64,000 nucleotides of DNA from Oscillospiraceae bacterium. GTDB taxonomy: Bacteria; Bacillota; Clostridia; Oscillospirales; CAG-272. Positions within the stretch are counted from its first letter, which is position 1. Every line of letters begins with the position of its first letter. The translations under genes and the position numbers were made by a program. This document shows, piece after piece, positions 720 to 64,000 of the stretch. The notes under the pieces are model-generated. The model was not told the origin of the DNA, made no database searches, and saw nothing but the letters and a program-made list of their open reading frames with translations. Location: contig SVTJ01000007.1 of the NCBI GenBank assembly GCA_015063845.1, forward strand, positions 21,968-85,967, in the 5' to 3' direction.

Positions 720-1592
720 CTAAATTTCCCTTGTGAACAAAGAATTGTTATATATGCACGCTTCAGCAATAAGTGCATCCACGCTCTTTTCGTATACATC
801 AGTGATCGTCACACTGTCACAATATACACTCATAAACTTGTCTATGCCACCCAGTTGAGCCACACAGTAATCCACAAAAATATATCCTACTATGTATCTG
901 TATATATCTGTATTTTTATCAATTTTGGAAATGTCATAATCATTATACAGTATTGCAACAAAGCCGCGGTAATAATTCTTTTGATTATACTCAAGCTCAT
1001 TGTTGGATAAAAGCTCACAAATAGCTTGATGCTCTGTTGCGTTTGTATCCTCTGAAAAAGCTTCTTCCTTGAAGAACATATATTCCTGTGATGCGATACA
1101 GTCATAAAAATTCAAGCTTACGTATTCAGCCAAACCTTCGCTAAACAGCTTGCTCGGACTATAAACAAGATCTACGTTATTCTCGCTTACCATATGTACA
1201 TATTCGTGTACAAAATCTCCCAAGGAAACACAATACATTTTTCGTTCATTCCAATAGCACTGTGAACGTTTTCCTCCGCTTTCGTTACGATACGAACTGT
1301 CAAAATAACAAACCGACTCTCTTGCTTCTTCCAAAGTATAATTCGCCTTGAGATAAGTCCTGATATCCAACATTACGGAAACGGCTTCTGCCGCAATAGC
1401 TGCAATATCAGATTCATTAAAGTCCTGCTTTGAAAAATAAAAGGTCATCCAATCAGTGCGAAAAATATAGTCTGATTCTGTTTGTTCTATTGTCAATGTA
1501 TCTGCTTTTTTATCCGAAGTAACTGAATTGCACCCAAATAAGCAAAACACAAAACAAACGAGAATTAGAATAACAACTATTCGTTTAGTCAT
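720..1592 (-). CDS. putative lipoprotein with an HExxH (zinc-metallopeptidase-like) motif
   Basis: Signal peptide plus lipobox (LFGCNS) and an HEYVH motif. It overlaps the upstream gene by 8 nt, implying translational coupling. Confidence 0.5.
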   Translation of the reverse strand: MTKRIVVILILVCFVFCLFGCNSVTSDKKADTLTIEQTESDYIFRTDWMTFYFSKQDFNESDIAAIAAEAVSVMLDIRTYLKANYTLEEARESVCYFDSSYRNESGGKRSQCYWNERKMYCVSLGDFVHEYVHMVSENNVDLVYSPSKLFSEGLAEYVSLNFYDCIASQEYMFFKEEAFSEDTNATEHQAICELLSNNELEYNQKNYYRGFVAILYNDYDISKIDKNTDIYRYIVGYIFVDYCVAQLGGIDKFMSVYCDSVTITDVYEKSVDALIAEACIYNNSLFTREI

Positions 1593-2544
1593 GTTGATTT
1601 ATCCAAGATAATAATCTTTGCTGACTTTCTCCCGTAAAATCGGATGAAAGCGCATCTATCTTGTTGTAAGTACAATCATTATTAGTATTCTTTAATGAAT
1701 TGTAAAGAGCATCTGCTTGTTCCACAGGAAAAAATGGACTTTGTGTGTAGTGCAACAGCAATAGAGGTCTATCAATCTTTTGACAGAAATTCACAGCTGA
1801 GCGAAGCTCATATTCCTGGGGAGCTTCCTCGTATGTTTTTCCAATCAAAGACGCCATAAGATTAGTAATTCCGTCTCCACGAAATTCGGCATATGCAGCA
1901 AGGTCTGAAATCACATCAACAACAGCACAACCACTTATCCTCTTTTCGGTATCCTCGGCAAACAAACGAAGTGCGGTTATTGAGCCCTCGGAAGAACCTG
2001 CCACAAATATCTTTGAATTTTCAATAAAGCTTGCAGAATCAAATATTTTCAACAGTTTTTGTGCATCTGCAAGATCCTTTGCGCCGCCTGAGTCTCTCGT
2101 TCCCTCACTATCTCCATTACCTCTAGCGTACGGACGTATCACTATAATGTCGTTAAGAGCATAATTTGATGCAAGTGATTCTATATATGTACGAACTTGA
2201 GGAAAATATATCAAAACTGTATACTGCTTGTTTTCATTTGTATAATCGTCAGGAAGAACTACGTCTGCTGCAATCTTTCCGTATTCTGTTTCATACATAA
2301 CCTTGTAAGCAACCGCTCCGTTTATCTGCTTCGAAAAAGTTTGTTTTGTCACAGAAATCACACCGTCAACATCAGTCAATTTTTCCATACTGTTTATCGG
2401 GTTTGTCTCTTTTGGAGCATCGGGTTGTTGTTCTTCTTTAGGTTGCTCGGAAATATCCGTATTATTATCCATTGACGGCTGATTATTACATGCAGTCAGT
2501 ATAAGCATCAAAATCGCACAAAGTAAAGCTATATATTTTTTCAT
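1585..2544 (-). CDS. alpha/beta-hydrolase fold lipoprotein
   Basis: Lipoprotein signal (LTACNN), a GxSxG nucleophile elbow (AGSSEGS), and an overall alpha/beta hydrolase pattern. Confidence 0.6.
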   Translation of the reverse strand: MKKYIALLCAILMLILTACNNQPSMDNNTDISEQPKEEQQPDAPKETNPINSMEKLTDVDGVISVTKQTFSKQINGAVAYKVMYETEYGKIAADVVLPDDYTNENKQYTVLIYFPQVRTYIESLASNYALNDIIVIRPYARGNGDSEGTRDSGGAKDLADAQKLLKIFDSASFIENSKIFVAGSSEGSITALRLFAEDTEKRISGCAVVDVISDLAAYAEFRGDGITNLMASLIGKTYEEAPQEYELRSAVNFCQKIDRPLLLLHYTQSPFFPVEQADALYNSLKNTNNDCTYNKIDALSSDFTGESQQRLLSWINQHD

Positions 2545-3647
2545 ATTATTTTTTCCTTTCTTTTAAAAACGTACCAATGCGGCATCATTCCACCGTAGAA
2601 ATAGTCTCCTGATTTGTGTTGAACAAACAAAAATTCCTCGCCATCTATCACTTTTATTTGATATTCTTCGGCTGTCATTTCCTTATCGTCCAAAACAAAT
2701 CCCTTTGTGTAACGCAACATAAGGTTGGAACTTCTAGACATCGTGCGTATCCGTCTTGTACAAATCCCACGCGGCAAGAAATTAATGTTGATCACATAAA
2801 TATTCTTGTCATTACTGTATCTTTTGTTCGGACTGAATTTTGATATATCCGGAACGAGATCGAGCGCCGTCCATTCACCTTGAACCGATTTGTCTTCAAC
2901 AAACGGGAGCTCTGTTTTATCAATATTACGGCGTATTTTTTGTTCCGTATACGCAACAGTGTCTATTTGACGATACAAAAGCGTTACACTATCCACTCCT
3001 TTGTCTATACAATCGTCACTCATAAATTGCATAATAATATACCGTGTTCCGTCTTGCTCTACAGTCCTATATGAATTTGGTATCGCAAATTTGTATTTTG
3101 GCGATAGTCTGTAAAGTATCCCTTTTGTCCAGAAATATTTCCATGCAAAAGCACCGCCAGGCATAAATATTATTTCTTCATCAGCTATGCCCGCATTTAC
3201 TTTTTTCAACGATGTCAGCTCGTTCTCGTCAAGGAGCTTTCCGCATAACTGCCATTTTCCGACTACTTGAGGATCGTTTTCAAATGGCAGAAGAAGTATT
3301 TCAGACAAAACGGGCTTTTTTAAACCGTTCTCGCAAATTTCATTAATTATTTTGATCTGATTTTTGAATTTGTCGATCGAACAAGACAGTTCATCCTTTT
3401 TCTTTTGTAGAATATCTCGTAATTCATCACTTTTGGCCACTTGTATCTTTTTGATCTCATCCAAAGAAAAGCCAAGATTTTTATAGAACAGTATCTGCTT
3501 ATATTTTTCAACTGCCTCAGTCGAATAAAATCGGTATCCGCTTGACTGAGAAATAACGTCAGCTTTCAGCACGCCCTCGGAATCATAATACCGCAATGTT
3601 TGCGTGCTGACGTTACAGATCTTCGCCAAATCGCCTATTTTTATCAT
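2541..3647 (-). CDS. MerR-family transcriptional regulator with a large C-terminal effector domain
   Basis: N-terminal MerR HTH (IGDLAKICNVSTQTLRYYDSEGVL), GGAGG RBS, and a start overlapping the next gene by ATGA. Confidence 0.75.
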   Translation of the reverse strand: MIKIGDLAKICNVSTQTLRYYDSEGVLKADVISQSSGYRFYSTEAVEKYKQILFYKNLGFSLDEIKKIQVAKSDELRDILQKKKDELSCSIDKFKNQIKIINEICENGLKKPVLSEILLLPFENDPQVVGKWQLCGKLLDENELTSLKKVNAGIADEEIIFMPGGAFAWKYFWTKGILYRLSPKYKFAIPNSYRTVEQDGTRYIIMQFMSDDCIDKGVDSVTLLYRQIDTVAYTEQKIRRNIDKTELPFVEDKSVQGEWTALDLVPDISKFSPNKRYSNDKNIYVININFLPRGICTRRIRTMSRSSNLMLRYTKGFVLDDKEMTAEEYQIKVIDGEEFLFVQHKSGDYFYGGMMPHWYVFKRKEKII

Positions 3648-6220: not shown

Positions 6221-7672
6221 ATGAAAAAGAAAGACAAGGATATCAAAAACGATATTGAAAATATTGAAGATGTTGAAACCGTCGAAGAGCAAAATGAAGA
6301 AGTCACCGTCTCAGAGGAAGAAGTTCCGCTGAACGACGAGGAGCTGTTGATGCTGAAGAGGAGCGTGCGCGAGGACAGAAAAAAGCGTCGCAGACTTACT
6401 CACTACGACAACTCCGACAAGGCGAAATTCTGGAGATTTACAAAGCGAAACAAGATATTCTCGGTCATTTGCGTATTGCTTGCCGTTCTTATAATCGCGC
6501 TCTCCACGCTCGGCACGGTATTTCTTGTGAGAAAGATACGCGCCAGAGAAAACAAGTCGGATTTCACCATAATATTCGGCGACGGAAAGTACACTGAAAA
6601 ATCCACGTACACAGCAAAATACGAGGACCTTATGCGCGACGGAATACTGCATATTGATATGTATAAGCTCGCGGAATATGCCGATCTTACCGTTACGGGA
6701 ACAAAAACCTCAGTCAAGTTCACCTCAAACAAGGACAACTATCTTCGCTTTGAGAACGCAAGCACCGAGGCAATAATAAACGGCTCGAGCGTCGAGGTTG
6801 GCAGTGCCACCGTCGTGAATGCCGAAAACTGCTACGTTCCCTACGACTTTCTAACAAAGGCGGTTGGCGACGCACTCAAGTTCACACTTGACCGAGACAC
6901 CAACACGATAAAGATCGCGCGCAGAGTTCACGCCACCGACGACGATGACGTTTTCGAGCCCGTCGAGATACTCTTCTACACCGACAATTTTACAGTTATC
7001 GTAGCTATGCACCAAGTAACAGACGAATATAAATACGAATATCCGCTTACCGCAAAGCCGTATATATCCGCAATGGATCCCGAGGACCCGTCCGAGTATC
7101 TGCTGCTTGCAAACAAGCAGACCCCTCTTGGCGAGGCATATGCTCCGACAGACCTTGTAAAGCTTACCTGCAAAACGGCAACCGGCAGAGAGATGTTCTT
7201 ACGCAAGGATGCAGCAGACGCGCTCTACTTTATGATGATGTGTATGCAGGCTGACGGAATAAACGACACATACGTCACAAGCGCGTATCGCTCATACGCA
7301 TATCAGGTAGACCTCTGGAACAGATACGTCGACCAGCATATGTCCGAGGGAATGACACGCGAGCAGGCAGAGGAAATGGCGCTAACCTACTCAGCGCGCC
7401 CCGGTACGAGCGAGCACCAGACGGGACTTTGCATTGATTTTATGACTACGTCTATGACAGAGCTTGACGAGAGCTTTGAGAACAGTCAAGCGTTTGCGTG
7501 GCTCAAGGATAACGCTCACAAATACGGATTTGTTCTCCGCTATCCCGCAGATAAGGTTGGCACAACGGGTTACAAATACGAGCCTTGGCACTACCGCTTT
7601 GTCGGCAGAGAGGCGGCAACCGAGATGTACCTCTCAAACTTCTGCTTTGAGGAATATCTCAAAGTAAATTAA
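6221..7672 (+). CDS. membrane-anchored D-alanyl-D-alanine carboxypeptidase (VanY / peptidase M15 family)
   Basis: N-terminal TM segment, and a C-terminal domain with SEHQTGLCIDF and EPWHYRFVG (VanY zinc-binding signature). Confidence 0.8.
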   Translation: MKKKDKDIKNDIENIEDVETVEEQNEEVTVSEEEVPLNDEELLMLKRSVREDRKKRRRLTHYDNSDKAKFWRFTKRNKIFSVICVLLAVLIIALSTLGTVFLVRKIRARENKSDFTIIFGDGKYTEKSTYTAKYEDLMRDGILHIDMYKLAEYADLTVTGTKTSVKFTSNKDNYLRFENASTEAIINGSSVEVGSATVVNAENCYVPYDFLTKAVGDALKFTLDRDTNTIKIARRVHATDDDDVFEPVEILFYTDNFTVIVAMHQVTDEYKYEYPLTAKPYISAMDPEDPSEYLLLANKQTPLGEAYAPTDLVKLTCKTATGREMFLRKDAADALYFMMMCMQADGINDTYVTSAYRSYAYQVDLWNRYVDQHMSEGMTREQAEEMALTYSARPGTSEHQTGLCIDFMTTSMTELDESFENSQAFAWLKDNAHKYGFVLRYPADKVGTTGYKYEPWHYRFVGREAATEMYLSNFCFEEYLKVN

Positions 7673-9840: not shown

Positions 9841-10005
9841 TCAAATTAGGATTTATCGGGGACGCGTTTTTTTGAGGGGAACTTCTTGAAAGAAGTTCCC
9901 CTCAAACTCCCTTCAAGAACTTTAAAACTAAATTATTATTGGTGTAGCCGTAAGAAAAGATATAACTTTATTGTTTTTCTTATAAGGAAAAAACTCGTCG
10001 GACCT
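9841..10005 (+). repeat. copy A of the palindromic intergenic repeat family (X-type half element)
   Basis: Starts GTCAAATTAGGATTTATCGG, carries the conserved hairpin GAGGGGAACTTCTT-GAAA-GAAGTTCCCCTC, and ends AAAACTCGTCGGACC. Confidence 0.8.
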
Positions 10006-12913: not shown

Positions 12914-12954
12914 TAAATTAGGATTTGTCGATGGACTCGCATAAATCTAATTTT
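12914..12954. repeat. cargo-less mini copy of the repeat-family termini (two inverted AAATTAG(G)ATTTRTCG arms back to back), each arm containing TGTCGA
   Basis: AAATTAGGATTTGTCGATGGACTCGCATAAATCTAATTT, about 90-130 bp upstream of the spoIIG -35. Confidence 0.6.
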
Positions 12955-13007
12955 CTCTTTATTGCTTGCGGGAGAAAGATGTGGCGGAGCCACCACCTCA
13001 TTATCAT

Positions 13008-13053
13008 TATCAATATCAATATTATTCTCATTATTATTATCATTATCATTATA
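13008..13053. repeat. AT-rich ATT/ATC microsatellite-like low-complexity tract
   Basis: cattatcattatcaatatcaatattattctcattattattatcattatcattat. Confidence 0.7.
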
Positions 13054-13064
13054 GGGTTTTTTCG

Positions 13065-13108
13065 CTTTTTTTGGCAACCGATAGCTTTTTTTGGCAACCG
13101 ATCGGTTT
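13065..13108. repeat. tandem direct repeat 2 x TTTTTTTGGCAACCGAT ending in the 12-bp palindrome AACCGATCGGTT
   Basis: ctttttttggcaaccgat agctttttttggcaaccgatcggtt. Confidence 0.7.
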
Positions 13109-13111
13109 TCA

Positions 13112-30227: not shown

Positions 30228-30400
30228 GCAAAAACCGAAGGCGGAGGGGCTCTGGAGAATCTCCCAAAGTAGGAGTGCCGAAGGTGCAAAGCGAAGCTTT
30301 ATGCTTCGTCCAATCTCTCAGGCAAAAGGACAGAGCAGACAATAAAGGTCTGTATTGTTTCTCTTCACGAGCCACTGAAGGTTTTCAGTGGTTTTTTTAT
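30228..30400 (+). promoter_or_regulatory. glycine riboswitch (single aptamer) with terminator expression platform
   Basis: GGAGGGGCUCUGGAGAAUCUCCC...GCCGAAGGUGCAAAG...CUCAGGCAAAAGGACAGAG matches the glycine aptamer consensus. It is followed by CCACTGAAGG-TTTTCAGTGG plus a T-run, and lies upstream of the AGCS symporter. A TGgTATAAT promoter sits at 30174-30182. Confidence 0.75.
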
Positions 30401-30428: not shown

Positions 30429-31841
30429 ATGGACGCTATTCAAAATTTTCTTCTTGGTATAGTCTCAAAGATCAATATGTATCTTTCTGACTATATCCTC
30501 ATTTTCCTTCTTGTCGGCGTAGGTCTTTTCTACACCATCAGAACAAGATTCGTTCAGATCCGTTGCTTTGGCGAGGGAATGAAGCAGGTTTTCGGCGGTA
30601 TTTTCTCAAAGAAAAACGGCGCTAAGGGTGGACTTTCATCCTTCCAGGCACTCGCTACCGCAGTTGCGGCTCAGGTAGGTACGGGTAACATCGTCGGTGC
30701 TTGTGGAGCGATCCTTATAGGTGGTCCCGGTGCTATATTCTGGATGTGGGTCATCGCATTCTTCGGTATGGCTACCATCTATGCCGAGGCAACTCTTGCT
30801 CAGAACACCAAGGTCGTCGGCGAAAACGGTGCGGTTCTCGGAGGTCCCGTTTACTACATCAAGAAAGCATTCAAAGGCACATTCGGCAAGATCCTCGCAG
30901 CCTTCTTTGCAATCGCAACAATTCTTGCTCTCGGATTTATGGGAACGATGGTTCAGTCCAACTCCATAGCAGGTGCTATCAACAATGCTGTTCCCGCTAT
31001 TCCTACGTTCGCAGTAGGTATAGTTCTCGCAATTATCTGCGGATTTATTTTCATTGGCGGCATAAAGCGCATTGCCTCGGTTGCTGAAAAGGTAGTTCCC
31101 GCAATGGCTGTTATCTACATTATTCTCGCCATCATTGTTCTCGGTGTTAACATCAAGGCAGTTCCCGCAACATTTGGCATGATCTTCAAATATGCATTTG
31201 TGCCTCATGCTGTACTCGGCGGCGGTATAGGCTTTGCTCTTAAGACAGCTATCAGCCAGGGTGCGAAGAGAGGTTTGTTCTCCAACGAAGCAGGTATGGG
31301 TTCAACACCTCACGCTCACGCACAGGCAGAGGTTGAAATTCCTCACCAGCAGGGTGTCGCAGCTATGATCGGTGTATTTGTAGATACATTTATAGTTCTT
31401 ACAATGACAGCCCTCGTTGTTATCACAACTCTTTACAAGGACGGAGTTCCCGTCGTTGACGTCACAAAGAACAACATGATGCAGGTCGCTATGGGTACCG
31501 TATTCGGCACAACAGCAGGCTCTCTGCTCGTTGCTATCTGCCTTATGTTCTTCGCTTTCACAACAATTATCAGCTGGAACTTCTTCGGTAAGCAGAACGT
31601 TGAGTATATGTTCGGCAAGAAAAACGCGAAGGCTGCAACAATAATTTACTCAGTAATCGCAATCGCATTCATTTTCCTCGGAACAGTATTCCAGTCCGAC
31701 CTCGTTTGGGAGCTCACAGACTTCTTCAACTATCTCATGGTACTCCCCAACGCACTCGCACTCTTCGTGCTTTCTCGAATCGTTGTCGATGCAACAAAAG
31801 AAGGCAAGGCACGCAAAAAGGCAAACAAAAACAACAAATAA
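30429..31841 (+). CDS. alanine/glycine:cation symporter (AGCS family)
   Basis: 470 aa, 11-12 TM helices, and a characteristic AGCS N-terminus (YILIFLLVGVGLFYTIRTRFVQIR). Confidence 0.85.
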   Translation: MDAIQNFLLGIVSKINMYLSDYILIFLLVGVGLFYTIRTRFVQIRCFGEGMKQVFGGIFSKKNGAKGGLSSFQALATAVAAQVGTGNIVGACGAILIGGPGAIFWMWVIAFFGMATIYAEATLAQNTKVVGENGAVLGGPVYYIKKAFKGTFGKILAAFFAIATILALGFMGTMVQSNSIAGAINNAVPAIPTFAVGIVLAIICGFIFIGGIKRIASVAEKVVPAMAVIYIILAIIVLGVNIKAVPATFGMIFKYAFVPHAVLGGGIGFALKTAISQGAKRGLFSNEAGMGSTPHAHAQAEVEIPHQQGVAAMIGVFVDTFIVLTMTALVVITTLYKDGVPVVDVTKNNMMQVAMGTVFGTTAGSLLVAICLMFFAFTTIISWNFFGKQNVEYMFGKKNAKAATIIYSVIAIAFIFLGTVFQSDLVWELTDFFNYLMVLPNALALFVLSRIVVDATKEGKARKKANKNNK

Positions 31842-37458: not shown

Positions 37459-37521
37459 GCACCGACGCTGCCATCGCAGCTCGCTTCGCATAAGTGCCAT
37501 CCCAGCCAGCACAAAAGGCAC
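37459..37521 (+). repeat. 63-bp direct repeat, copy 1 (contains CCATCCCAGCCA, the tRNA-Gln 3'-end sequence)
   Basis: Identical except for one mismatch to 37939-38001. Confidence 0.85.
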
Positions 37522-37938
37522 CCCAAGAGGTGTCTTACATAAAGCAGGTTTTAATCTCCCTGCGAGATCCGAACGGCGTTGCCGTTCGCCCTTCGGGTTT
37601 CGACTGCGTCCGCCCGTGTCATTCTGAGCGAAGCGGAGCGGAGTCGAACTGCGAAGCAGCACCGAGCAAAGCGAAGGTAGAATCTCGGGCGGACTCCGCT
37701 CAAGATGACACGCAGGGGGCAGCACCTTCCGAAAAAATAACAAAAGGAGTACGAGCAATTTTGTTCGTACTCCTTTTGTGTTTGCGGTAGGTAAAACCTG
37801 CTTTATCGCAGGTACGCCAATGCGTGCCTTTTGTATTGGAGCTTTTTTCGCCGGGTATTCAAATTTGCTTTGCAAATTTGAAGATTTCCTCGCCCTGCGC
37901 CTGGTGAGCGAGCTACCCGATCTTCGGGCGGGAAATGT

Positions 37939-38001
37939 GCACCGACGCTGCTATCGCAGCTCGCTTCGCATAAGTGCCATCCCAGCCAGCACAAAAGGCA
38001 C
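37939..38001 (+). repeat. 63-bp direct repeat, copy 2, abutting tRNA-Gln and forming a 26-bp-stem perfect hairpin with the tRNA 3' end
   Basis: CCATCCCAGCCAGCACAAAAGGCACG-CCAATG-CGTGCCTTTTGTGCTGGCTGGGATGG. Confidence 0.85.
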
Positions 38002-38022
38002 GCCAATGCGTGCCTTTTGTGC

Positions 38023-38097
38023 TGGCTGGGATGGCCGGATTTGAACCGACGGATGCCAGAGTCAAAGTCTGGTGCCTTACCGCTTGGCGACATCCCA
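38023..38097 (-). tRNA. tRNA-Gln (anticodon UUG)
   Basis: 75-nt cloverleaf with U1-A72, anticodon loop CUUUGAC, T-loop GGTTCAAATCC, and an encoded CCA. Confidence 0.85.
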
Positions 38098-38180: not shown

Positions 38181-38506
38181 GTCAAATTAGGATTTGTCGG
38201 TGTGTTCGCACAGGCTTGCCGACGCTTGCGAGTGTTCCTCACTCTAAGAACTTTAACACAAAGAAATTATTATTTTTTTAATTGGGCTGAAAAACTCATT
38301 GTAGTGCAGAACGTTCAAATACCCATAAAACTCGTCGGTACGTAGGGTCCGACGAGTTTTTACCTCAGAGAAAAACAATAAAGTTATATATTTCCTATGG
38401 CTGTAACAATAACTATTTTGTTTTAAAGTTCTTGAAGGGAGTTTGAGGGAAGCTTCTTTCAAGAAGTTTCCCTCAAAAAAACGCGTCCCCGATAAATCCT
38501 AATTTA
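38181..38506. repeat. copy B of the palindromic intergenic repeat family (full element: Y arm, central bidirectional terminator hairpin, inverted X arm)
   Basis: Termini GTCAAATTAGGATTTGTCGG ... CCGATAAATCCTAATTTA, centre AAAACTCGTCGG-TACGTAGGGT-CCGACGAGTTTTT (38327-38361). Confidence 0.85.
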
Positions 38507-38525
38507 TCATATTTTTCAAAATTCC

Positions 38526-38830
38526 TTGACAAATATTTCTTTGTGTGATATAATACTTAATTGTAATAAACAAATGCTTTGACGAAGACAGTAGCGTAGA
38601 TGAGCGTTTTCAGAGAATCGGGGTATGGTGTGAGCCCGATATTCGCCGCTATGTGAATATCACTTCCGAGCTGCGTGGACGAAGCCGTTTTTTGGTGTGT
38701 AGTCTCCGACGGGACCGAGCCGTTATTTTCGGGACGTATGATGTACGTTTTAATGGGTGGTTTGTGAGCTTTCGTCCTATTAGCGGCGGAGCTTTTTTTA
38801 TTTTTAAATATAAACTCTAAAAGGAGAATT
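38526..38830 (+). promoter_or_regulatory. consensus sigma-A promoter plus a T-box-like leader of ileS
   Basis: TTGACA-17-TATAAT (38526-38554), and a roughly 270-nt structured leader with AGAGA and GGGTGG (T-box-like) elements. The canonical T-box and terminator are not cleanly resolved. Confidence 0.45.
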
Positions 38831-38833
38831 AAT

Positions 38834-41800
38834 ATGCTTTACAACAAGGTATCAACCAATCTGAGCTTCGTTGAGCGTGAAAAGAACACTGCAAACTTTT
38901 GGCGCGAGAACGATGTTGTCAGAAAGAATCTTGACAAGGCGGGAGAAACCTACACGTTCTACGACGGTCCTCCTACCGCAAACGGTAAGCCCCATATCGG
39001 TCACTTGCTCACACGTGCGATCAAGGATATGATCCCTCGCTATCAGGTAATGAAAGGCAAGTGTGTCACGCGAAAGGCCGGCTGGGATACTCACGGTCTC
39101 CCCGTTGAGCTTGAGGTCGAGAAGCTTCTCGGTCTTGACGGTAAGGAGCAGATCGAGCAGTACGGTCTTGAGCCGTTTATCGGCAAATGTAAGGAAAGCG
39201 TTTGGAAGTACAAGGGTATGTGGGAGGACTTCTCCGAGACCGTTGCATTCTGGGCGGATATGAAGGATCCTTACGTTACCTACGACAACAACTTCATCGA
39301 GTCCGAGTGGTGGGCTCTCAAGGAGATATACAACAAGGGACTGCTTTATAAGGGCTTCAAGATCGTCCCCTACTGCCCCCGTTGCGGTACTCCCTTGTCC
39401 AGCCACGAGGTAGCTCAGGGATATAAGGACGTCAAGGAAAAATCCGCTATCGCGAAGTTCCGCGTAAAGGGCAAGACAGACGAGTATATCCTCGCTTGGA
39501 CGACCACGCCTTGGACACTTCCCTCAAACGTAGCTCTCTGCGTAAACCCTGTTGAGACCTACGCAAAGATATCTGTCGGCGATGAGAAGTACATTCTCGC
39601 AGAGGCGCTCATTCCCTCTGTTATCTCCGATGAGTATACTGTTCTCGAAACTTACATCGGTAAGGACCTTGAGAGAATGGAATACGAGCCTCTCTTTGAC
39701 TTCGCAAAGCCGCAGAAGAAGGCGTTCTACGTTGTCTGCGACGGCTACGTAACGCTTACGGACGGTACAGGTATAGTTCATATCGCTCCCGCATTCGGTG
39801 AGGACGACTCCCGCGTCGGTCGCGAGTATGACCTTCCCTTCGTTCAGCTCGTCGACTCTCACGGCTGTATGACAAAGGAGACCGATTGGCCCGGTATGTT
39901 CTGCAAGGACGCGGACGCAGAGGTATTCAAGTCTCTTCGTGAAAAAGGCTTGCTCTTCAAGGCTCTTCCCTTTGAACACTCCTATCCCTTCTGCTGGAGA
40001 TGCGACACTCCCCTTATCTACTACGCTCGCGAGAGCTGGTTCATACGTATGACCGCAGTTCGCGACAGACTTGTTGCGAACAACAACACTATCAATTGGA
40101 TACCCGAGAGCATTGGTAAGGGACGCTTCGGCGACTGGATATGCAACGTTCAGGACTGGGGTATCAGCCGTAACCGTTATTGGGGTACTCCCCTTAACAT
40201 CTGGCAGTGTGAGTGCGGAGAGATGCACTCCGTAGGCTCTATCGCAGAGCTTCGCGAGCTTTCCGACAACTGCCCTGAGAACATTGAGCTTCACAGACCT
40301 TTCGTTGATAACGTAACCTTCAAGTGTAAGAAGTGCGGCGGCGAGATGCGCCGTGTTCCCGAGGTTATCGACTGCTGGTTCGACTCGGGTGCTATGCCCT
40401 TCGCTCAGTGGCACTATCCTTTTGAGAACAAGGATATATTCGAGAAGAACTTCCCTGCTGACTTTATCAGTGAGGCAGTTGACCAGACCAGAGGTTGGTT
40501 CTATTCGCTTCTCGCTATCTCCACGCTTCTCTTTGACAAAGCTCCCTACAAGAACGTAATAGTTCTCGGTCTTGTTCAGGACGAGAACGGACAGAAGATG
40601 TCCAAGTCCAAGGGCAACGCTGTAGACCCCTTTGAGGCTCTCGCTAAGTACGGCGCAGATGCTCTCCGTTGGTACTTCTATTCCAACAGCGCTCCTTGGC
40701 TGCCCAGCCGTTTCTACGGCGACGCTGTCGTTGACTGTCAGAGAAAGTTCCTCGGAACGCTCTGGAACACATATGCGTTCTTCGTTCTTTATGCAAACAT
40801 CGACGATTTCGATGCTACAAAGTACACGCTCGACAAGGAAAAGCTCTCCGTTATGGACAAGTGGTTGCTCTCTCGCCTTAACACGGTAGTCCGCGAGTGC
40901 GACCAGCTTTACAGCGAGATGAAGATAGTTGAGACCACCAAAGTACTTGAGAAGTTTGTTGACGAGCTCTCCAACTGGTACGTTCGTCGTTCACGTGAGC
41001 GTTTCTGGGGCAAGGATATGACCGAGGACAAGATAAACGCTTATATGACGCTTTACACCGTTCTCGTTACTATCGCAAAGGTCTCTGCTCCTATGATACC
41101 CTTTATGTCCGAGGATATCTACCGCAATCTCGTTTGCTCCATTGACAAGGATGCGCCCATAAGCGTTCACCTCTCCGACTTCCCCGTATGTGACGAGTCT
41201 TACATCGACGCGGAGCTTGAGGAGATGATGAAGGACGTGCTTGATATCGTCGTTCTCGGACGCGCAGGCAGAAACGCAGCTGCTATCAAGAACCGTCAGC
41301 CCATAGGCAAGATGTACGTCAAGGCAGACTTCACCATGTCGGAGCTTTACACCGATATCATTGAGGACGAGCTTAACGTAAAGTCCGTTGAATTCACAGA
41401 CAACGTAAGCGCATTCTCAAGCTACAGCTTCAAGCCTCAGATGAGAACTGTTGGACCGAAGTACGGCAAGTATCTCGGCAAGATCAAGGAGCTTCTCGCC
41501 GCTGTTGACGGCAACGCCGCTATGGCAGAGCTTGAGACAAACGGAGTGCTCTCACTCGATCTTGGAGACGGAACAGTCGCAAAGCTTGAGCGTGACGATC
41601 TTCTTATCGACGTCAAGCAGATCGAAGGCTACCTCTCTACAAGTGATTACGGTGTGACCGTGGTGCTTGACACCAACCTCACCGAAGAGCTTATCGAAGA
41701 GGGTATCGTCCGTGAGCTTGTAAGTAAGATACAGAATATGCGTAAGGATAGCGGATTTGAGGTCATGGACCACATCGTTATCACCATCGGCGGCAGCGAA

Positions 41801-41938
41801 CGCGTAAGCGATATTCTCCGCCGCAACGCAGAGGAGATCTGCACACAGACTCTTGCAGACAACGTCGTATATGCCGACGGTGGCAAGGAATGGAACATAA
41901 ACGGCGAGACCGTTTCCCTTTCCGTTGCAAAGGTTTAA
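38834..41938 (+). CDS. ileS: isoleucine--tRNA ligase, type 2 (1034 aa, no C-terminal zinc finger)
   Basis: HIGH (GKPHIGHLLT), KMSKS (KMSKSKGN), editing-domain blocks, and a long type-2 C-terminal extension. Confidence 0.95.
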   Translation: MLYNKVSTNLSFVEREKNTANFWRENDVVRKNLDKAGETYTFYDGPPTANGKPHIGHLLTRAIKDMIPRYQVMKGKCVTRKAGWDTHGLPVELEVEKLLGLDGKEQIEQYGLEPFIGKCKESVWKYKGMWEDFSETVAFWADMKDPYVTYDNNFIESEWWALKEIYNKGLLYKGFKIVPYCPRCGTPLSSHEVAQGYKDVKEKSAIAKFRVKGKTDEYILAWTTTPWTLPSNVALCVNPVETYAKISVGDEKYILAEALIPSVISDEYTVLETYIGKDLERMEYEPLFDFAKPQKKAFYVVCDGYVTLTDGTGIVHIAPAFGEDDSRVGREYDLPFVQLVDSHGCMTKETDWPGMFCKDADAEVFKSLREKGLLFKALPFEHSYPFCWRCDTPLIYYARESWFIRMTAVRDRLVANNNTINWIPESIGKGRFGDWICNVQDWGISRNRYWGTPLNIWQCECGEMHSVGSIAELRELSDNCPENIELHRPFVDNVTFKCKKCGGEMRRVPEVIDCWFDSGAMPFAQWHYPFENKDIFEKNFPADFISEAVDQTRGWFYSLLAISTLLFDKAPYKNVIVLGLVQDENGQKMSKSKGNAVDPFEALAKYGADALRWYFYSNSAPWLPSRFYGDAVVDCQRKFLGTLWNTYAFFVLYANIDDFDATKYTLDKEKLSVMDKWLLSRLNTVVRECDQLYSEMKIVETTKVLEKFVDELSNWYVRRSRERFWGKDMTEDKINAYMTLYTVLVTIAKVSAPMIPFMSEDIYRNLVCSIDKDAPISVHLSDFPVCDESYIDAELEEMMKDVLDIVVLGRAGRNAAAIKNRQPIGKMYVKADFTMSELYTDIIEDELNVKSVEFTDNVSAFSSYSFKPQMRTVGPKYGKYLGKIKELLAAVDGNAAMAELETNGVLSLDLGDGTVAKLERDDLLIDVKQIEGYLSTSDYGVTVVLDTNLTEELIEEGIVRELVSKIQNMRKDSGFEVMDHIVITIGGSERVSDILRRNAEEICTQTLADNVVYADGGKEWNINGETVSLSVAKV

Positions 41939-41950
41939 GAATACGTTTTT

Positions 41951-41988
41951 TAGGGGAACTTCTTCCAAGAAGTTCCCCTAAATTTTTG
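41951..41988 (+). terminator. intrinsic terminator of ileS, using the same hairpin sequence found inside the repeat family
   Basis: TAGGGGAACTTCTT-CC-AAGAAGTTCCCCTA followed by AATTTTTG. Confidence 0.8.
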
Positions 41989-41996
41989 TTTGTGAG

Positions 41997-42326
41997 GTAA
42001 ATTAGGATTTATCGGGGACGCGTTTTTTTGAGGGACGCGTTTTTTTTGAGGGAAACTTCTTGAAAGAAGTTTCCCTCAAACTCCCTTCAAGAACTTTAAA
42101 ACAAAATAGTTATTGTTACAGCCATAGGAAATATATAACTTTATTGTTTTTCTCTGAGGTAAAAACTCGTCGGACCCTACGTACCGACGAGTTTTATGGG
42201 TATTTGAACGTTCTGCACTACAATGAGTTTTTCAGCCCAATTAAAAAAACAATAATTTCTTTGTGTTAAAGTTCTTAGAGGGGAATACTCGCAAGCCTGT
42301 GCGAACTCCCCGATAAATCCTAATTT
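41997..42326. repeat. copy C of the palindromic repeat family (full element, inverted relative to copy B; internal 17-bp tandem duplication GACGCGTTTTTTTGAGG)
   Basis: Termini GGTAAATTAGGATTTATCGGGG ... CCCCGATAAATCCTAATTTA, central hairpin at 42162-42195. Confidence 0.85.
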
Positions 42327-42347: not shown

Positions 42348-42376
42348 TTGACAAAGGTAGGAAAATAGTGTATAAT
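42348..42376 (+). promoter_or_regulatory. feo upstream promoter P1 (TTGACA-17-TATAAT)
   Basis: Exact consensus hexamers. Confidence 0.6.
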
Positions 42377-42382
42377 AATTAC

Positions 42383-42400
42383 AGTTAGCATACGCTAACT
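42383..42400. promoter_or_regulatory. operator-like palindrome 1 (AGTTAGC-ATAC-GCTAACT) at +1 of P1
   Basis: Perfect 7-4-7 inverted repeat, 7 nt downstream of the -10. Confidence 0.5.
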
Positions 42401-42438
42401 CGTATCAGTGAGTATTAAGAGGCAATACCCTCTTGTCC

Positions 42439-42486
42439 ATCGGATCGTCGTTTTCCGTTTTTCGGCGATCCGATTTTAATTTTTTC
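42439..42486 (+). terminator. hairpin plus T-run ending a short P1 transcript (leader or sRNA)
   Basis: ATCGGATCG-(18-nt loop)-CGATCCGAT followed by TTTTAATTTTTT. Confidence 0.45.
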
Positions 42487-42602: not shown

Positions 42603-42620
42603 GGTTAGTTGAGGCTAACT
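42603..42620. promoter_or_regulatory. operator-like palindrome 2 (GGTTAGT-TGAG-GCTAACT) at +1 of P2
   Basis: Same half-sites as palindrome 1, at the same position relative to the -10. Confidence 0.45.
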
Positions 42621-42901: not shown

Positions 42902-42919
42902 GGTTAGCCACCGCTAACT
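42902..42919. promoter_or_regulatory. operator-like palindrome 3 (GGTTAGC-CACC-GCTAACT) between feoA and feoB
   Basis: Third copy of the rGTTAGy-N4-GCTAACT motif. Confidence 0.45.
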
Positions 42920-48192: not shown

Positions 48193-51100
48193 TTAGTTTG
48201 TCGTACCTACGTTTTTGAGCGTGGGATGCGTGCCTTCGGCAAAGCTCCAATCATCGGCGGACCAAGTGAGAGTTGTGGTCTGGAACGTTACCGATTGCAA
48301 TTCGGTCAAGGATTTAGTCGTTCCATACGTGTTGGTAGGCTCGTAGGTTGTCTTTTCGCTTTTCGTCACGGTAAAGCTTTGTCCGCTGTAGCGATAGCAA
48401 TTGGTTATTGTTCCCTTGTAATTATCACCGACCAAGCCGCCTGCGTAGCTGTATTTGCTGGAGCTGGAGCTTACATCACCCGTTGCATAGCAATTACTTA
48501 TTGTACCGCCGTCATTATCACCAACCAAGCCGCCTGCGTAACTGTATCCGGAGTTAGAGTTGGTGATAGAGCTTGTTGCGTCACCTATTGCATAGCAGTT
48601 GGTTATTGTACCGCTATTACAACCAACCAAGCCGCCTGCGTAACTATCGCTGTAGCTAGAGCTGGAGCTTATATCACCCGTGGCATAGCAGTTATTTATT
48701 ATTCCATCATCGTCATTATAGCCGACCAAGCCGCCTGCGTAGCTGTATTTGCTGGAGTTGGAGCTGGAGCTGGTTACATCTCCCGTGGCATAGCAGTTGG
48801 TTATTGTACCGCCATTACCACCAACCAAGCCACCTGCTTTGCTACTGGAGCTGGAGCTGGAGCTGGTTACATCTCCCGTTGCATAGCAGTTGGTTATTCT
48901 ACCGCTACCATTATAACCAACCAAGCCGCCTGCGTAGCTGGGGTCGTAGCTTGAGCTGGAGCTTACGTCACCCATTGCATAGCAGTTGGTTATTCTACCG
49001 CTACCATTATAACCAACCAAGCCGCCTGCTCTGCTACGGCAGGAGGAGCTATCGACGCAAATGGAGATTACCTCTCCCGTTGCATAGCAATTATTTATGT
49101 TACCGTAATTACAACCAACCAAGCCGCCTGCGTAACTATCTCCGTCGTTGGAGACGGAGCTTACGTCTCCCGTTGCATAGCAGTTATTTATTATTCCATC
49201 ATCGTCATTAAAGCCGACCAAGCCGCCTGTGTAACTGAGGGAGATGTGTTTGGGGCTGGAACTGGAGCTTACGTCACCCGTTGCATAGCAATTACTTATT
49301 GTACCGCCGTAATTCCAACCAACCAAGCCGCCTGTGTGTCTGCTGGAGGTTTCTCCGGAGCTGGAGCTGGTTACATCTCCCGTGGCATAGCAATTACTTA
49401 TTGTACCGCCGTAATTATAACCAACCAAGCCACCTGCGTAACTATGGTCAGGGCATACGTCTATTGTAAAATTCTCTACGCCAAGATTCTTTATAGTACC
49501 CTCGTTATATCCAAACAAGCCCGCAGCATATGCTACCGAATCCGTTATCTTGAAATTAGATATGGCATATCCGTTTCCGTCAAAAACGCCCTTAAAAGGT
49601 AAGTCTTTTGTACCTATAGGCGTCCACTCTATGCCGCCAAGATCCAAATTCGTCACCAAACAGTATTTGACATTTTCAGCATTTGTAGAGATTGATCTTA
49701 GTTGCTGTACCGTATAGATCGGTATATATCCCGATATGTACGTACCGTAATACAATTGGATGCTTTCGGGCAATTGTATAATACCAATTCCATTCGTTTT
49801 TGAATACACCGTTCCGTTTTTATCAGTCCATACACTCTCAAAGCCATCTTCTACCGTAGGCATCGGCAGCGTATAGTTACTTGCATTATCTACAAACAAT
49901 ATCTGCCACAGCTCACCGTCCACGTAAAGCTCAACGAAAGGCTTTTCGGAAAGAAGAACACCGAAAGCGTATTGTTTTACTACGGTATTATCGGCGACAT
50001 CTGTCGCCGTAACGGTAACTACCACCGTAGTTCCGGCAATCATCTCTCCTGAGCACATCACATCAAAGCTCAATTCCTTGCCAAAGTAGTCATACGCCCT
50101 AAATAGTGTAGAAAGGTCGGTATCCTCGTGAATAATGCGGTTACTCTGCACAAGCTCTACGGTAGGCATACCGTAAAACGTATATACAGCATTAATCGTA
50201 ATATCCTCGTGTCCGAGCGTATAGCTTTCCCACTTGCCCGTATATCCCGCATGTGTGGGAACGGCAGGCTCGGTGATGGACTGTGTTTCTACCGTGAATT
50301 TAACAGTATCGACAACGGTAGTACCGTCCATAAAGGTTGCCGTATATTCAACAGCCTCCCACTTTGCGTAAAGGTGAACGATATCCGTAGTGCCGACTGC
50401 GATCTCGGTTACTATGTTGTTAAATCCGGCATCGCTGTACCAGCCCTTGAAGCTATAGTAATTCTTACTTGCGTTAGTAAGAACGAGGGGCAGATCCTCT
50501 ACGTCGTAATTTGCGGGGTTGTTATGCGTTGCTCCCTCGACGTTGTGATATACGATATTATAATTGATCGGGGTATATATAGCATTAATCGTAATATCCT
50601 CGTGTCCGAGCGTATAGCTTTCCCACTTGCCCGTATATCCCACATGTGTGGGAACGGCAGGCTCGGTGATGGACTGTGTTTCTACCGTGAATTTAACAGT
50701 ATCGACAACGGTAGTACCGTCCATAAAGGTTGCCGTATATTCAACAGGCTCCCACTTTGCGTAAAGGTGAACGATATCCGTAGTGCCGACTGCGATCTCG
50801 GTTACTATGTTGTTAAATCCGGCATCGCTGTACCAGCCCTTGAAGATATAGTAATTCTTACTTGCGTTAGTAAGAACGAGGGGCAGATCCTCTGCGTCGT
50901 AATTTGCGGGGTTGTTATGCGTTGCTCCCTCGACGTTGTGGTATATAATATTATAATCAACCGTATCCCATTTTGCGGTCAACGTAAGATTGCCCGTACT
51001 GCCCTTGGATATTTGGGAAACGGGAGTATTGCCAACGTACCATCCGCTAAAGGTATAGCCATCCTTAGACAAGGGCGCAAATGTGATCGTATCGCTGTTG

Positions 51101-51705
51101 ATGGTATATGTAGCAGGATTTGTGTTTACAGCACCCTTTGTGTTCTCGTAGGTAATGCTGTACGTTGCCAATTCAAACTTGGCGTAAAGCGTCATATCTC
51201 CGGTAGTACCCGCAGCTATGGCTGTTATCTGTGTTGTAAATGCCGCGTCCGTGTACCATCCCAAGAAGTTATAACATGCCTTCTGCGCGTCGGCAAACGC
51301 AAAGCCTATATCCGCCGTATATTTCAAGGGGTTGTTATGCGTACCGCCGTCCGTTTCGTAAGATATGGAATATTCGGTCGCCTTGAATCTTGCATATACG
51401 GACATATTGCTCGAGATAGGAGTATCAAGCAAGGAGCTGACCGTAAACGGATTGCTCCACACATCCTTATCCCAATACCAGCCCTCAAAGGTATAGCCCT
51501 CCTTTTTCGGGTCATCGGGTAGGGTCGGTGTTTCGCCTTCGATCATTTCGATAGTAGAGTACGTTTGTCCGTCCACTATAAAAGACAGCGTGAAATTGCT
51601 GTCGGACGGAACGTCGGGTTTGCTGCCCGAGTCGCCCTTACCGCAGGATGCAAGAATGGCAACCAGCATAGCAAGCGTCAGAAATAAAGCGATAAGCCTT
51701 TTCAT
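48193..51705 (-). CDS. large cell-surface lipoprotein with Listeria-Bacteroides (InlB B-repeat/Flg_new) repeats and about 12 C-terminal GLUG-motif repeats
   Basis: Lipobox ILASCG, several EGYTFxGWY..xxxTxDxTLYAKW repeats, and a C-terminal array of YAGGLVG(Y/C)N..GTI(T/S)NCYATGDV units. Confidence 0.8.
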   Translation of the reverse strand: MKRLIALFLTLAMLVAILASCGKGDSGSKPDVPSDSNFTLSFIVDGQTYSTIEMIEGETPTLPDDPKKEGYTFEGWYWDKDVWSNPFTVSSLLDTPISSNMSVYARFKATEYSISYETDGGTHNNPLKYTADIGFAFADAQKACYNFLGWYTDAAFTTQITAIAAGTTGDMTLYAKFELATYSITYENTKGAVNTNPATYTINSDTITFAPLSKDGYTFSGWYVGNTPVSQISKGSTGNLTLTAKWDTVDYNIIYHNVEGATHNNPANYDAEDLPLVLTNASKNYYIFKGWYSDAGFNNIVTEIAVGTTDIVHLYAKWEPVEYTATFMDGTTVVDTVKFTVETQSITEPAVPTHVGYTGKWESYTLGHEDITINAIYTPINYNIVYHNVEGATHNNPANYDVEDLPLVLTNASKNYYSFKGWYSDAGFNNIVTEIAVGTTDIVHLYAKWEAVEYTATFMDGTTVVDTVKFTVETQSITEPAVPTHAGYTGKWESYTLGHEDITINAVYTFYGMPTVELVQSNRIIHEDTDLSTLFRAYDYFGKELSFDVMCSGEMIAGTTVVVTVTATDVADNTVVKQYAFGVLLSEKPFVELYVDGELWQILFVDNASNYTLPMPTVEDGFESVWTDKNGTVYSKTNGIGIIQLPESIQLYYGTYISGYIPIYTVQQLRSISTNAENVKYCLVTNLDLGGIEWTPIGTKDLPFKGVFDGNGYAISNFKITDSVAYAAGLFGYNEGTIKNLGVENFTIDVCPDHSYAGGLVGYNYGGTISNCYATGDVTSSSSGETSSRHTGGLVGWNYGGTISNCYATGDVSSSSSPKHISLSYTGGLVGFNDDDGIINNCYATGDVSSVSNDGDSYAGGLVGCNYGNINNCYATGEVISICVDSSSCRSRAGGLVGYNGSGRITNCYAMGDVSSSSSYDPSYAGGLVGYNGSGRITNCYATGDVTSSSSSSSSKAGGLVGGNGGTITNCYATGDVTSSSSNSSKYSYAGGLVGYNDDDGIINNCYATGDISSSSSYSDSYAGGLVGCNSGTITNCYAIGDATSSITNSNSGYSYAGGLVGDNDGGTISNCYATGDVSSSSSKYSYAGGLVGDNYKGTITNCYRYSGQSFTVTKSEKTTYEPTNTYGTTKSLTELQSVTFQTTTLTWSADDWSFAEGTHPTLKNVGTTN
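50181..50960. repeat. near-identical 2 x 393-bp tandem duplication inside the surface-protein gene (131-aa protein repeat)
   Basis: Unit 1 (50188-50580) and unit 2 (50581-about 50960) differ by only a few substitutions. Confidence 0.85.
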
Positions 51706-56390: not shown

Positions 56391-56405
56391 AGATAAGGAT
56401 GCGCG

Positions 56406-56819
56406 AGGGGAAAACTTCTTGGAAGAAGTTTTCCCCACTCCTGTTGCGTTTAACGGTTCTGTCTGCGCTCGCGTAGCGAGCTTGACAATCACCGAACGCC
56501 GCCACGCCTTATCGCTCGCTTTGTCTGCCACAGGCAGCGCTCGCAAACGTCCCCCCTTTCAAGAACTTTAAAACAAATTGTTTGTTGGTGTAGCCATAAA
56601 AAACATATAACTTTTTGTTTTTCTTTAATGTAAAAACACGTCGATAATCTATTGCCCGACGTGTTTTATGGGTATTTGCGCTTTGTGCGCTGTAACAAGT
56701 TTTTTAGCCCAACTAAAAAAGTAATAAATTATTTGTGTTAAAGTTCTTTCGGGAGTTTGAGGGAGCTTTCTTTCAAGAAAGCTCCCTCAAAAAACGCGTC
56801 CCATATAAATTCTAATTTG
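56406..56819. repeat. copy D of the palindromic repeat family (mosaic, with a roughly 120-bp divergent insertion)
   Basis: Begins with the hairpin GAGGGGAAAACTTCTT-GG-AAGAAGTTTTCCCC, has the central hairpin AAAAACACGTCG...CGACGTGTTTT (56632-56667), and ends CCCATATAAATTCTAATTTGTC. Confidence 0.75.
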
Positions 56820-60912: not shown

Positions 60913-60996
60913 GACAAATTAGGATTTACCCGCGTGTTCGCACAGTACTCAGTTTTAAAGTTTTGATAAAACTTTTAAGAGGGGGAATGTGCGAAC
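60913..60996. repeat. copy E of the repeat family (short: one terminus plus the GTGTTCGCACAG...CTGTGCGAACA hairpin)
   Basis: GACAAATTAGGATTTACCCGCGTGTTCGCACAG...AATGTGCGAACAT. Confidence 0.65.
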
Positions 60997-63788: not shown

Positions 63789-64000
63789 GTCAAATTAGGA
63801 TTTGTCGGTGGGTTCGCACAGGCTTGCCGACGCTTGCGAGTGTCCCCCCTCTAAGAACTTTAACACAAAGAAATTTTAATTGGGCTGAAAAACTCATTGT
63901 AGTGCAGAACGTTCAAATACCCATAAAACTCGTCGGTACGTAGGGTCCGACGAGTTTTTACCTCAGAGAAAAACAATAAAGTTATATATTTCCTATGGCT
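63789..64000. repeat. copy F of the palindromic repeat family (nearly identical to copy B; truncated by the window end)
   Basis: GTCAAATTAGGATTTGTCGGTGGGTTCGCACAGGCTTGCCGACGCTTGCGAG, the central hairpin AAAACTCGTCGGTACGTAGGGTCCGACGAGTTTTT, and the start of the inverted X arm. Confidence 0.85.

Follow-up and report, generated by a model that had tools for sequence, protein, structure and literature searches.

In the genome of an Oscillospiraceae bacterium (lineage CAG-272), the gene ileS for isoleucyl-tRNA synthetase (IleRS) is located between two copies, B and C, of an intergenic repeat. The stretch that was analysed, referred to here as the window, comprises 64,000 nucleotides (nt) of contig SVTJ01000007.1 from assembly GCA_015063845.1 (positions 21,968 to 85,967), and coordinates are those of the window unless another contig is named. 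One transcription unit, consisting of a promoter, a putative T-box leader, ileS, and a terminator, fills the whole interval between the two copies, with a gene for tRNA-Gln on one side and feoA and feoB on the other (Table 1). A repeat search detects inverted arms of 240 nt within B and C (38242-38481 and 42041-42280), which are 99% complementary and lie 3559 nt apart, and the limits of both copies were extended by BLAST, an alignment with MAFFT, and a profile search. The preliminary description of this DNA had reported full-length elements in opposite orientation that flank exactly the ileS unit with its promoter, T-box-like leader, and terminator; both statements hold, the limits of the elements falling within 3 nt of those first given. 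It had left the choice between a mobilised or exchangeable ileS cassette and, as a fallback, a native ileS that attracted repeats. It is very probable that ileS is a resident housekeeping gene, vertically inherited and T-box-regulated, beside which two independent copies of the repeat landed later.

This reading is carried by a comparison with four sister lineages from the 90% IleS cluster, namely L095, L096 (the same as L239), L097, and L240. Their IleS proteins are 96-98% identical to that of the window (22-39 amino acid differences) and their DNA is 88-89% identical to it at the nucleotide level. Both B and C are absent in all four, with homology breakpoints at most 4 nt from the ends of the elements. 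Upstream of ileS, the alignments begin at 38509, 4 nt past the end of B, except in L240, whose contig starts within the leader and aligns from 38658; downstream they stop at 41978 or 41938, and those of L095 and L097 begin again at 42323-42324, 3 nt before the end of C. Since homology breaks at the ends of the elements, ileS was there first and the repeats came later. In L096, the sequence starts inside tRNA-Gln, of which it contains the 5' half, and continues through the tRNA promoter and 49 nt to the -35 box of ileS, with no element between; ileS is followed there by a different terminator and feoA-feoB, again with no element on either side of the gene. The order in L095 is tRNA-Gln, one extra gene, ileS, and feoA, and in L097 and L240 feoA comes after ileS. 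The distance between ileS and feoA amounts to 154-455 nt in the sisters versus 717 nt in the window. The segment with tRNA-Gln is 91% and feoAB 70-81% identical between sisters and window, and ileS is therefore no outlier in divergence. As the sisters keep the ileS promoter without B, it was not supplied by the repeat. Promoters beside B and C had been considered as a part of the repeat; this idea was discarded, since they are missing beside other copies and are retained in sisters where the repeat is absent. Judged from these alignments, the order tRNA-Gln/ileS/feoAB and the promoter, leader, and terminator of ileS are older than the repeats. Thus, the gene order is conserved in sister relatives without flanking repeats, and their repeat-free sites with ileS in place bear out the fallback of the preliminary description. 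The exact IleS protein, listed by NCBI under a Ruminococcaceae/Oscillospiraceae metagenome-assembled genome, is encoded on 11 contigs from several metagenomes, and all contigs reaching the flanks have the arrangement and orientation of the window.

Table 1. Coordinates of the ileS unit, the neighbouring tRNA gene, and the copies of the repeat in the window
Feature	Position	Strand	Remarks
tRNA-Gln(UUG)	38023-38097	-	perfect promoter 38144-38116; ancestral upstream neighbour of ileS
Copy B, full length	38184-38505	+	322 nt, GC 0.373, longest open reading frame 9 amino acids; between the divergent tRNA-Gln and ileS promoters
ileS promoter	38526-38554	+	perfect TTGACA-17-TATAAT with TG extension
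Putative T-box leader, AUC (Ile) specifier	38570-38782	+	terminator/antiterminator at about 38770-38800
ileS coding sequence	38834-41938	+	1034 amino acids, type-2 IleRS; canonical HIGH (residue 54) and KMSKS (residue 588)
ileS intrinsic terminator	41949-41982	+	hairpin GGGGAACTTCTT..AAGAAGTTCCCC
Copy C, full length	41999-42326	-	328 nt, inverted relative to B; between the ileS terminator and the promoter 42348-42376
Copy A, shortened	9843-10004	-	R end, side hairpin, one inner arm, and half of the central hairpin
Mini form H	12915-12953		39 nt, two terminal inverted repeats and a 7-nt joint (AAATTAGGATTTGTCGATGGACTCGCATAAATCTAATTT)
Copy D, divergent	56394-56818	-	about 71-74% identical to B/C/F; extra 118-nt module; between convergent genes
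Copy E, L end only	60916-60945	+	terminal inverted repeat and GTGTTCGCACAG, then unrelated hairpins
Copy F	63792-64000	+	cut by the end of the window, which is the end of the source contig

The ileS gene itself has the properties of an ordinary housekeeping gene of its class. Its product combines the domains tRNA-synt_1, Anticodon_1, and PF19302 (DUF5915, residues 841-1034), and a domain search gave no match to a zinc-finger C-terminus (zf-FPG_IleRS), in agreement with the 1034-amino acid type-2 form recognised in the preliminary description. The putative T-box leader matches all of positions 1-219 of the model RF00230 with 78.9 bits (E 1.7e-16), the gathering score of 93 being higher. With a GC content of 0.512 and a GC content at third codon positions (GC3) of 0.636, compared to 0.487 +/- 0.042 and 0.544 +/- 0.070 for the genes of the window, ileS is ordinary in composition and inside the spread of its neighbours, as for a native gene, which points against a cassette. 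A genome scan confirmed 593 IleS relatives, and the best 80 of them, which are full-length and 66-76% identical, are nearly all labelled Clostridia (Eubacteriales, Acutalibacteraceae, Oscillospiraceae, and Lachnospiraceae); type 2 is therefore the form of IleS found throughout the class. Beyond the species' own IleS cluster, the nearest cluster in the protein database reaches only 76% identity, and nothing thus points to an allele recently shared with another taxon. Vertical descent of ileS is supported only indirectly. The annotated 1194-amino acid IleS of P0002 (GCA_965324505.1, L091 467-4051) contains residues ~380-540 twice; it had been a candidate for the closest relative and was set aside as an internally duplicated chimera, probably an assembly artefact.

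Although IleS matches no NCBIfam models better than MupA and MupB, its scores of 1025 and 999 bits are about half of the cutoff of 1900, and an assignment as acquired mupirocin-resistance IleRS was rejected because IleS stays below the cutoff of these exception models. Hyper-resistance of IleRS2 requires a GXHH (swapped G/AXHH) motif (PMC10485003). A hyper-resistant IleRS2 was also rejected, as IleS has the canonical HIGH at residue 54 and the swapped motif is missing. In bacteria, either ileS1 or ileS2 is generally the sole housekeeping gene, and both together occur essentially only in Bacillaceae and in one mupirocin producer (bioRxiv 10.1101/2022.02.09.479832). From this literature, ileS of the window is expected to be the sole one of its genome.

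The repeat is a nested palindrome of 322-419 nt free of open reading frames (ORFs), and its copies (322, 328, 419, and about 425 nt) have a GC content of 0.35-0.42 (~0.37) compared to 0.47 for the window, the longest ORF starting with ATG comprising 9 amino acids in B and 10 in C. Its outermost layer consists of 17-nt terminal inverted repeats (TIRs; AAATTAGGATTTRTCGG); in copy B, AAATTAGGATTTGTCGG pairs with CCGATAAATCCTAATTT at 17 of 17 positions, counting one G-T pair. The terminal motif AAATTAGGATTT occurs nine times in the window where 0.58 occurrences are expected. Inside the TIRs follow a GC-rich segment and inner inverted arms (AAGAACTTTAAnACAAA), and at the centre stands a hairpin, flanked by A- and T-runs, that resembles a bidirectional terminator. 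The ileS terminator and the side hairpin of the repeat (GAGGGAAnCTTCTT..AAGAAGnTTCCCTC) are members of one hairpin family. Hairpins of this type (GGGGAAnCTTCTT..AAGAAGnTTCCCC) are also observed in ordinary terminators, in the window (41949-41982 and 56408-56435) as well as in L095 (6841-6874), L097 (5909-5975), and L215 (2116-2194). Compared with shuffled sequences, the repeat folds with -60.7 kcal/mol as DNA (z = -8.4) and with -111/-113 kcal/mol as RNA (z = -8.6/-9.6).

Within the 64-kb window, the repeat is represented by seven copies or fragments, all intergenic, and the following 6 kb contain at least one further member. On a longer contig from another sample, copy F is complete with 419 nt (L219 6758-7176), and a further diverged repeat end is situated 5.8 kb past it. 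Two changes set copy C apart from B, a deletion of 12 nt close to one end and a tandem duplication of 18 nt close to the other. B, C, and F are nearly identical in their cores, which differ by one single-nucleotide polymorphism (SNP) and one 9-nt deletion in F, and the left end of B, with its 12-nt segment and its GTCGGTG form of the terminal repeat, agrees with F, not with C. Consequently, B and C do not stand out as a pair, and these similarities are in keeping with a recent burst or homogenisation across the family rather than with a paired origin. Beside mini form H, low-complexity DNA rich in ATT and ATC and a tandem duplication of TTTTTTTGGCAACCGATNG were noted (12960-13110).

When a profile of five copies was compared with 2.68 Mb of loci, including 84 ileS loci of other Clostridia, full elements were encountered in the source species only. 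The 17-nt end gave only chance matches and no real element among the matches listed in a metagenome scan (120 loci), longer motifs of the repeat found nothing in two scans of viral contigs, and a BLAST search against plasmids found nothing either. No Rfam family matches the repeat at the gathering threshold or at E <= 1. Among the genes called in the window and ~6 kb beyond, none belongs to a transposase family of Pfam. The repeat is an undescribed, recently expanded family in an uncultured gut/rumen-type Oscillospiraceae bacterium that resembles miniature transposable elements with inverted repeats (MITEs). It breaks up short-read assemblies, and many short-read contigs of the source species end within it.

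Several observations weigh against a resident gene joined later by two transposed repeats. At the site of C, L095 possesses a 30-nt degenerate relic of two joined TIRs (6887-6915) that is similar to mini form H, and in L097 a side hairpin and an inner arm are fused to the ileS stop codon; the C site may have held a member of the family before the split, which complicates a simple later insertion. L095 and L097 carry an extra gene for 579 amino acids, and upstream synteny differs among the sisters. Relatives with 76% identity have no conserved synteny, and the argument from synteny is that of one shallow clade; in the 80 genome relatives and in the P0014 and P0020 contexts (66-76% IleS identity), neighbours differ everywhere. 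A paired ileS1 was not seen within the 64-kb window, which was the scope of that search. No autonomous insertion sequence (IS) or transposase gene with the ends of the repeat was found in ~70 kb, and MITE is used here as an architectural label rather than for a demonstrated mechanism. Finally, a target-site duplication is unreadable at B or C, where the flanks are rich in T and A and the lineages with empty sites are 11% diverged.

When 7 of 34 usable intergenic gaps were filled at random, some gene was flanked on both sides in 57% of the trials, and with the four full copies only this was the case in 20%; the bracketing by B and C is therefore unsurprising. The preliminary description had also offered a mobilised cassette; in the form considered here, B and C would be the ends of a composite, MITE-flanked transposon that brought a type-2, mupirocin-insensitive ileS to a site beside tRNA-Gln. 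One self-contained transcription unit exactly between two near-identical elements with TIRs would suit such a cassette, horizontal spread of type-2 ileS occurs in some taxa, and cargo between MITEs is known elsewhere, as with class 1 integrons in Acinetobacter (PMC10969869, Fig. 3). However, the sisters hold ileS at the identical site with the same neighbours and without B and C, and homology breaks at the inner and not at the outer edges of the elements. The module of B, ileS, and C occurs in one genomic context only on all contigs with the exact IleS; it has no counterpart on plasmids or viral contigs, where BLAST against plasmids gave distant matches to the core only. No transposase was found among the genes called around the flanking elements, which themselves have no coding capacity, and no direct repeat is shared by the outer flanks of the module (AAATACGTC before 38184 and AAAAATTTT after 42326). 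Together with the native composition of ileS and the class-wide occurrence of type 2, this makes the cassette extremely improbable, and that claim of the preliminary description is abandoned. The adjacency of B, ileS, and C is due to chance and is not a mobile ileS cassette.

More weight has to be given to a reading in which the repeat is something other than a transposon. Modular palindromes of the REP/BIME or BOX/SPRITE kind, spreading or homogenising by recombination or gene conversion, are a tentative alternative that we consider possible, if rather unlikely. Such palindromes would be in line with the lack of both a target duplication and a partner IS, with modules that are present, absent, or in either order in copies D, E, F, and H, with the mini form of two TIRs and the similar relic exactly at the C site in L095, with cores of B, C, and F that are identical apart from the SNP and the deletion, and with a side hairpin common to ordinary terminators including that of ileS. 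In contrast, defined 17-nt TIRs, sharp insertion boundaries relative to the sisters, and AT-rich intergenic targets are classical features of MITEs (PMC10969869), and the search for a partner IS covered only ~70 kb of the genome. In a more elaborate and distinctly less likely version, short palindromes of two TIRs (12915-12953 and L095) would be seeded in spacers and full copies would overwrite them by TIR-templated gene conversion, the pair B/C making ileS invertible. Gene conversion would account for the identity of B, C, and F in their cores as well as for the missing target duplications and transposase. It is quite improbable that the repeat is a functional RNA, i.e., a small RNA or cis-regulatory insulator selected at its positions, including that beside ileS. 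Its very stable folds on both strands, the central hairpin with T-runs on both sides like a bidirectional terminator, and the proposed pairs, 95% of whose cells are paired over five copies with three double compensatory changes, would be expected of such an RNA, but no Rfam family matches, and covariation among the five sequences is not significant, the observed value being reached in 39 of 500 shuffles. Palindromes of mobile DNA give an identical signal, and the sisters manage without the repeats, with the same promoter, leader, and terminator. Slightly more doubtful still is an invertible segment, in which the 240-nt repeats, 99% identical, recurrently flip the 3.6-kb ileS unit, with both orientations in the population and some physiological consequence. 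The repeats are long, similar, and close enough for RecA-dependent inversion, and numerous short-read contigs break inside both of them; yet L001, L002, L003, and L098, the four contigs extending across a repeat, all have the same orientation, the breaks are accounted for by a multi-copy repeat and an assembly with k = 141, and, as promoter and terminator are inside the segment, expression would not be switched.

The preliminary description had also pointed to a duplicated att-like sequence beside tRNA-Gln. These direct repeats are real (37459-37536 and 37939-38016, 92% identical and 480 nt apart), but they are part of the palindromic trailer hairpin of the tRNA and enclose only a separate 268-nt element (37539-37806) with perfect 15-nt inverted ends (ATAAAGCAGGTTTTA), which is inserted in one copy of the duplicated trailer. 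An integrated island targeted to the tRNA was therefore rejected: no gene of an integrase family of Pfam was detected among the neighbours of tRNA-Gln, the repeats bound just the 268-nt element, and the adjacency of tRNA-Gln and ileS is common to sisters without the duplication. The 268-nt element is MITE-like and unrelated to the family of B and C; its interior contains a palindrome of the type GTCATTCTGAGCGAAGCGGAG, with a similar motif in L219 (12640-12700). The trailer of tRNA-Gln (37976-38035) is a perfect palindrome with 28-nt arms, the right one of which takes in the 3' acceptor end of the tRNA, and the complement of the tRNA 3' end is thus repeated after the terminator.

For a resident ileS with later repeats, the following course of events may be proposed. 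The repeat family would have expanded in the source genome after its split from the closest sampled sisters, and B and C would represent two independent landings in dispensable spacers on either side of ileS, by chance opposite in orientation. Most likely, the copies are MITEs whose spread depended on an unseen transposase acting in trans, and AT-rich spacers that tolerate insertion would have served as landing sites. B separates two divergent perfect promoters and touches neither of them, and with C further hairpins lie downstream of the ileS terminator, ahead of the next promoter. The only consequences might then consist in extra transcriptional insulation and in a substrate by which the 3.6-kb segment could be inverted in a RecA-dependent manner. 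The terminator-like hairpins of the repeat are related to the host's own terminators.

Some other features of the window deserve mention. Just upstream of feoAB, in the region 42348-42480, a perfect sigma-70 promoter precedes a GTTAGC-N4-GCTAAC palindrome, and these are followed by an untranslated transcript that is short and rich in hairpins and by a terminator; the palindrome is encountered again at the feoA promoter and in the gap between feoA and feoB (42604-42619 and 42903-42918). Of the sisters, L095 and L097 have kept this unit and L096 and L240 lack it; it is a candidate for a metal-regulated small RNA or leader with DtxR/IdeR-like operators. A block of three genes at 720-3647, located beside tRNA-Arg (398-474) and including genes for a MerR-family regulator and a BD-FAE-like hydrolase, has a GC content of 0.36-0.38 versus ~0.49; this block is the real compositional outlier of the window and possibly a small acquired island. 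A glycine riboswitch (30242-30343, 58.3 bits) is found upstream of a gene for a symporter of the Na+/alanine family (30429-31841). Furthermore, 48193-51705 encodes a 1170-amino acid protein with Flg_new/Glug repeats, with nine tandem units of ~93 nt and a 300-nt duplication at 99% identity.

In composite transposons, cargo is carried between two ISs. Unlike ISs, B and C encode no transposase, the outer target-site duplication is missing at their module, and ileS is present at the sister site without the repeats, whereas the whole module should be missing there. A type-2 ileS as cargo is known from staphylococcal plasmids, where mupA (ileS2) is flanked by IS257. Type-2 ileS is common to both cases, although ileS of the window resides at an ancestral chromosomal site and has no plasmid context. 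Class 1 integrons between identical MITEs in Acinetobacter likewise place a gene unit between near-identical short repeats (PMC10969869, Fig. 3). Compared with both of these systems, the repeats of the window would be independent insertions, and IleS scores 1025 bits where the MupA cutoff is 1900.

Bacterial MITEs include Correia, ERIC, RUP, and QMITE (reviewed in PMC10969869). With them, the repeat shares a length below 500 bp, TIRs (here of 17 nt), the lack of an ORF, AT-richness, intergenic location, and multiple copies, and also a stable stem-loop, embedded terminator-like hairpins, and presence or absence between close lineages. It differs in that no target-site duplication is readable and no cognate IS was found in ~70 kb, in its unusually deep nesting (TIR, GC-rich module, inner arms, and central hairpin) with modules missing or rearranged, and in being seen in one uncultured Oscillospiraceae lineage only. 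Similarly, the pneumococcal BOX, RUP, and SPRITE elements (PMC10969869) are intergenic modular repeats of Firmicutes with terminator-like hairpins, clustering, and nested insertion; the repeat of the window is larger and has clear inverted termini.

A resistance-type aminoacyl-tRNA synthetase gene between inverted repeats is in this case an ordinary housekeeping gene of a repeat-rich genome and is not to be taken for a mobile determinant of mupirocin resistance. IleS of the window resembles the IleRS2 enzymes that serve as sole housekeeping enzyme (bioRxiv 10.1101/2022.02.09.479832; PMC10485003) in its type-2 C-terminus, its canonical HXGH and KMSKS motifs, its predicted T-box control, and its sigma-70 promoter. 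It is without the GXHH motif of hyper-resistance and shows no notable difference from them.

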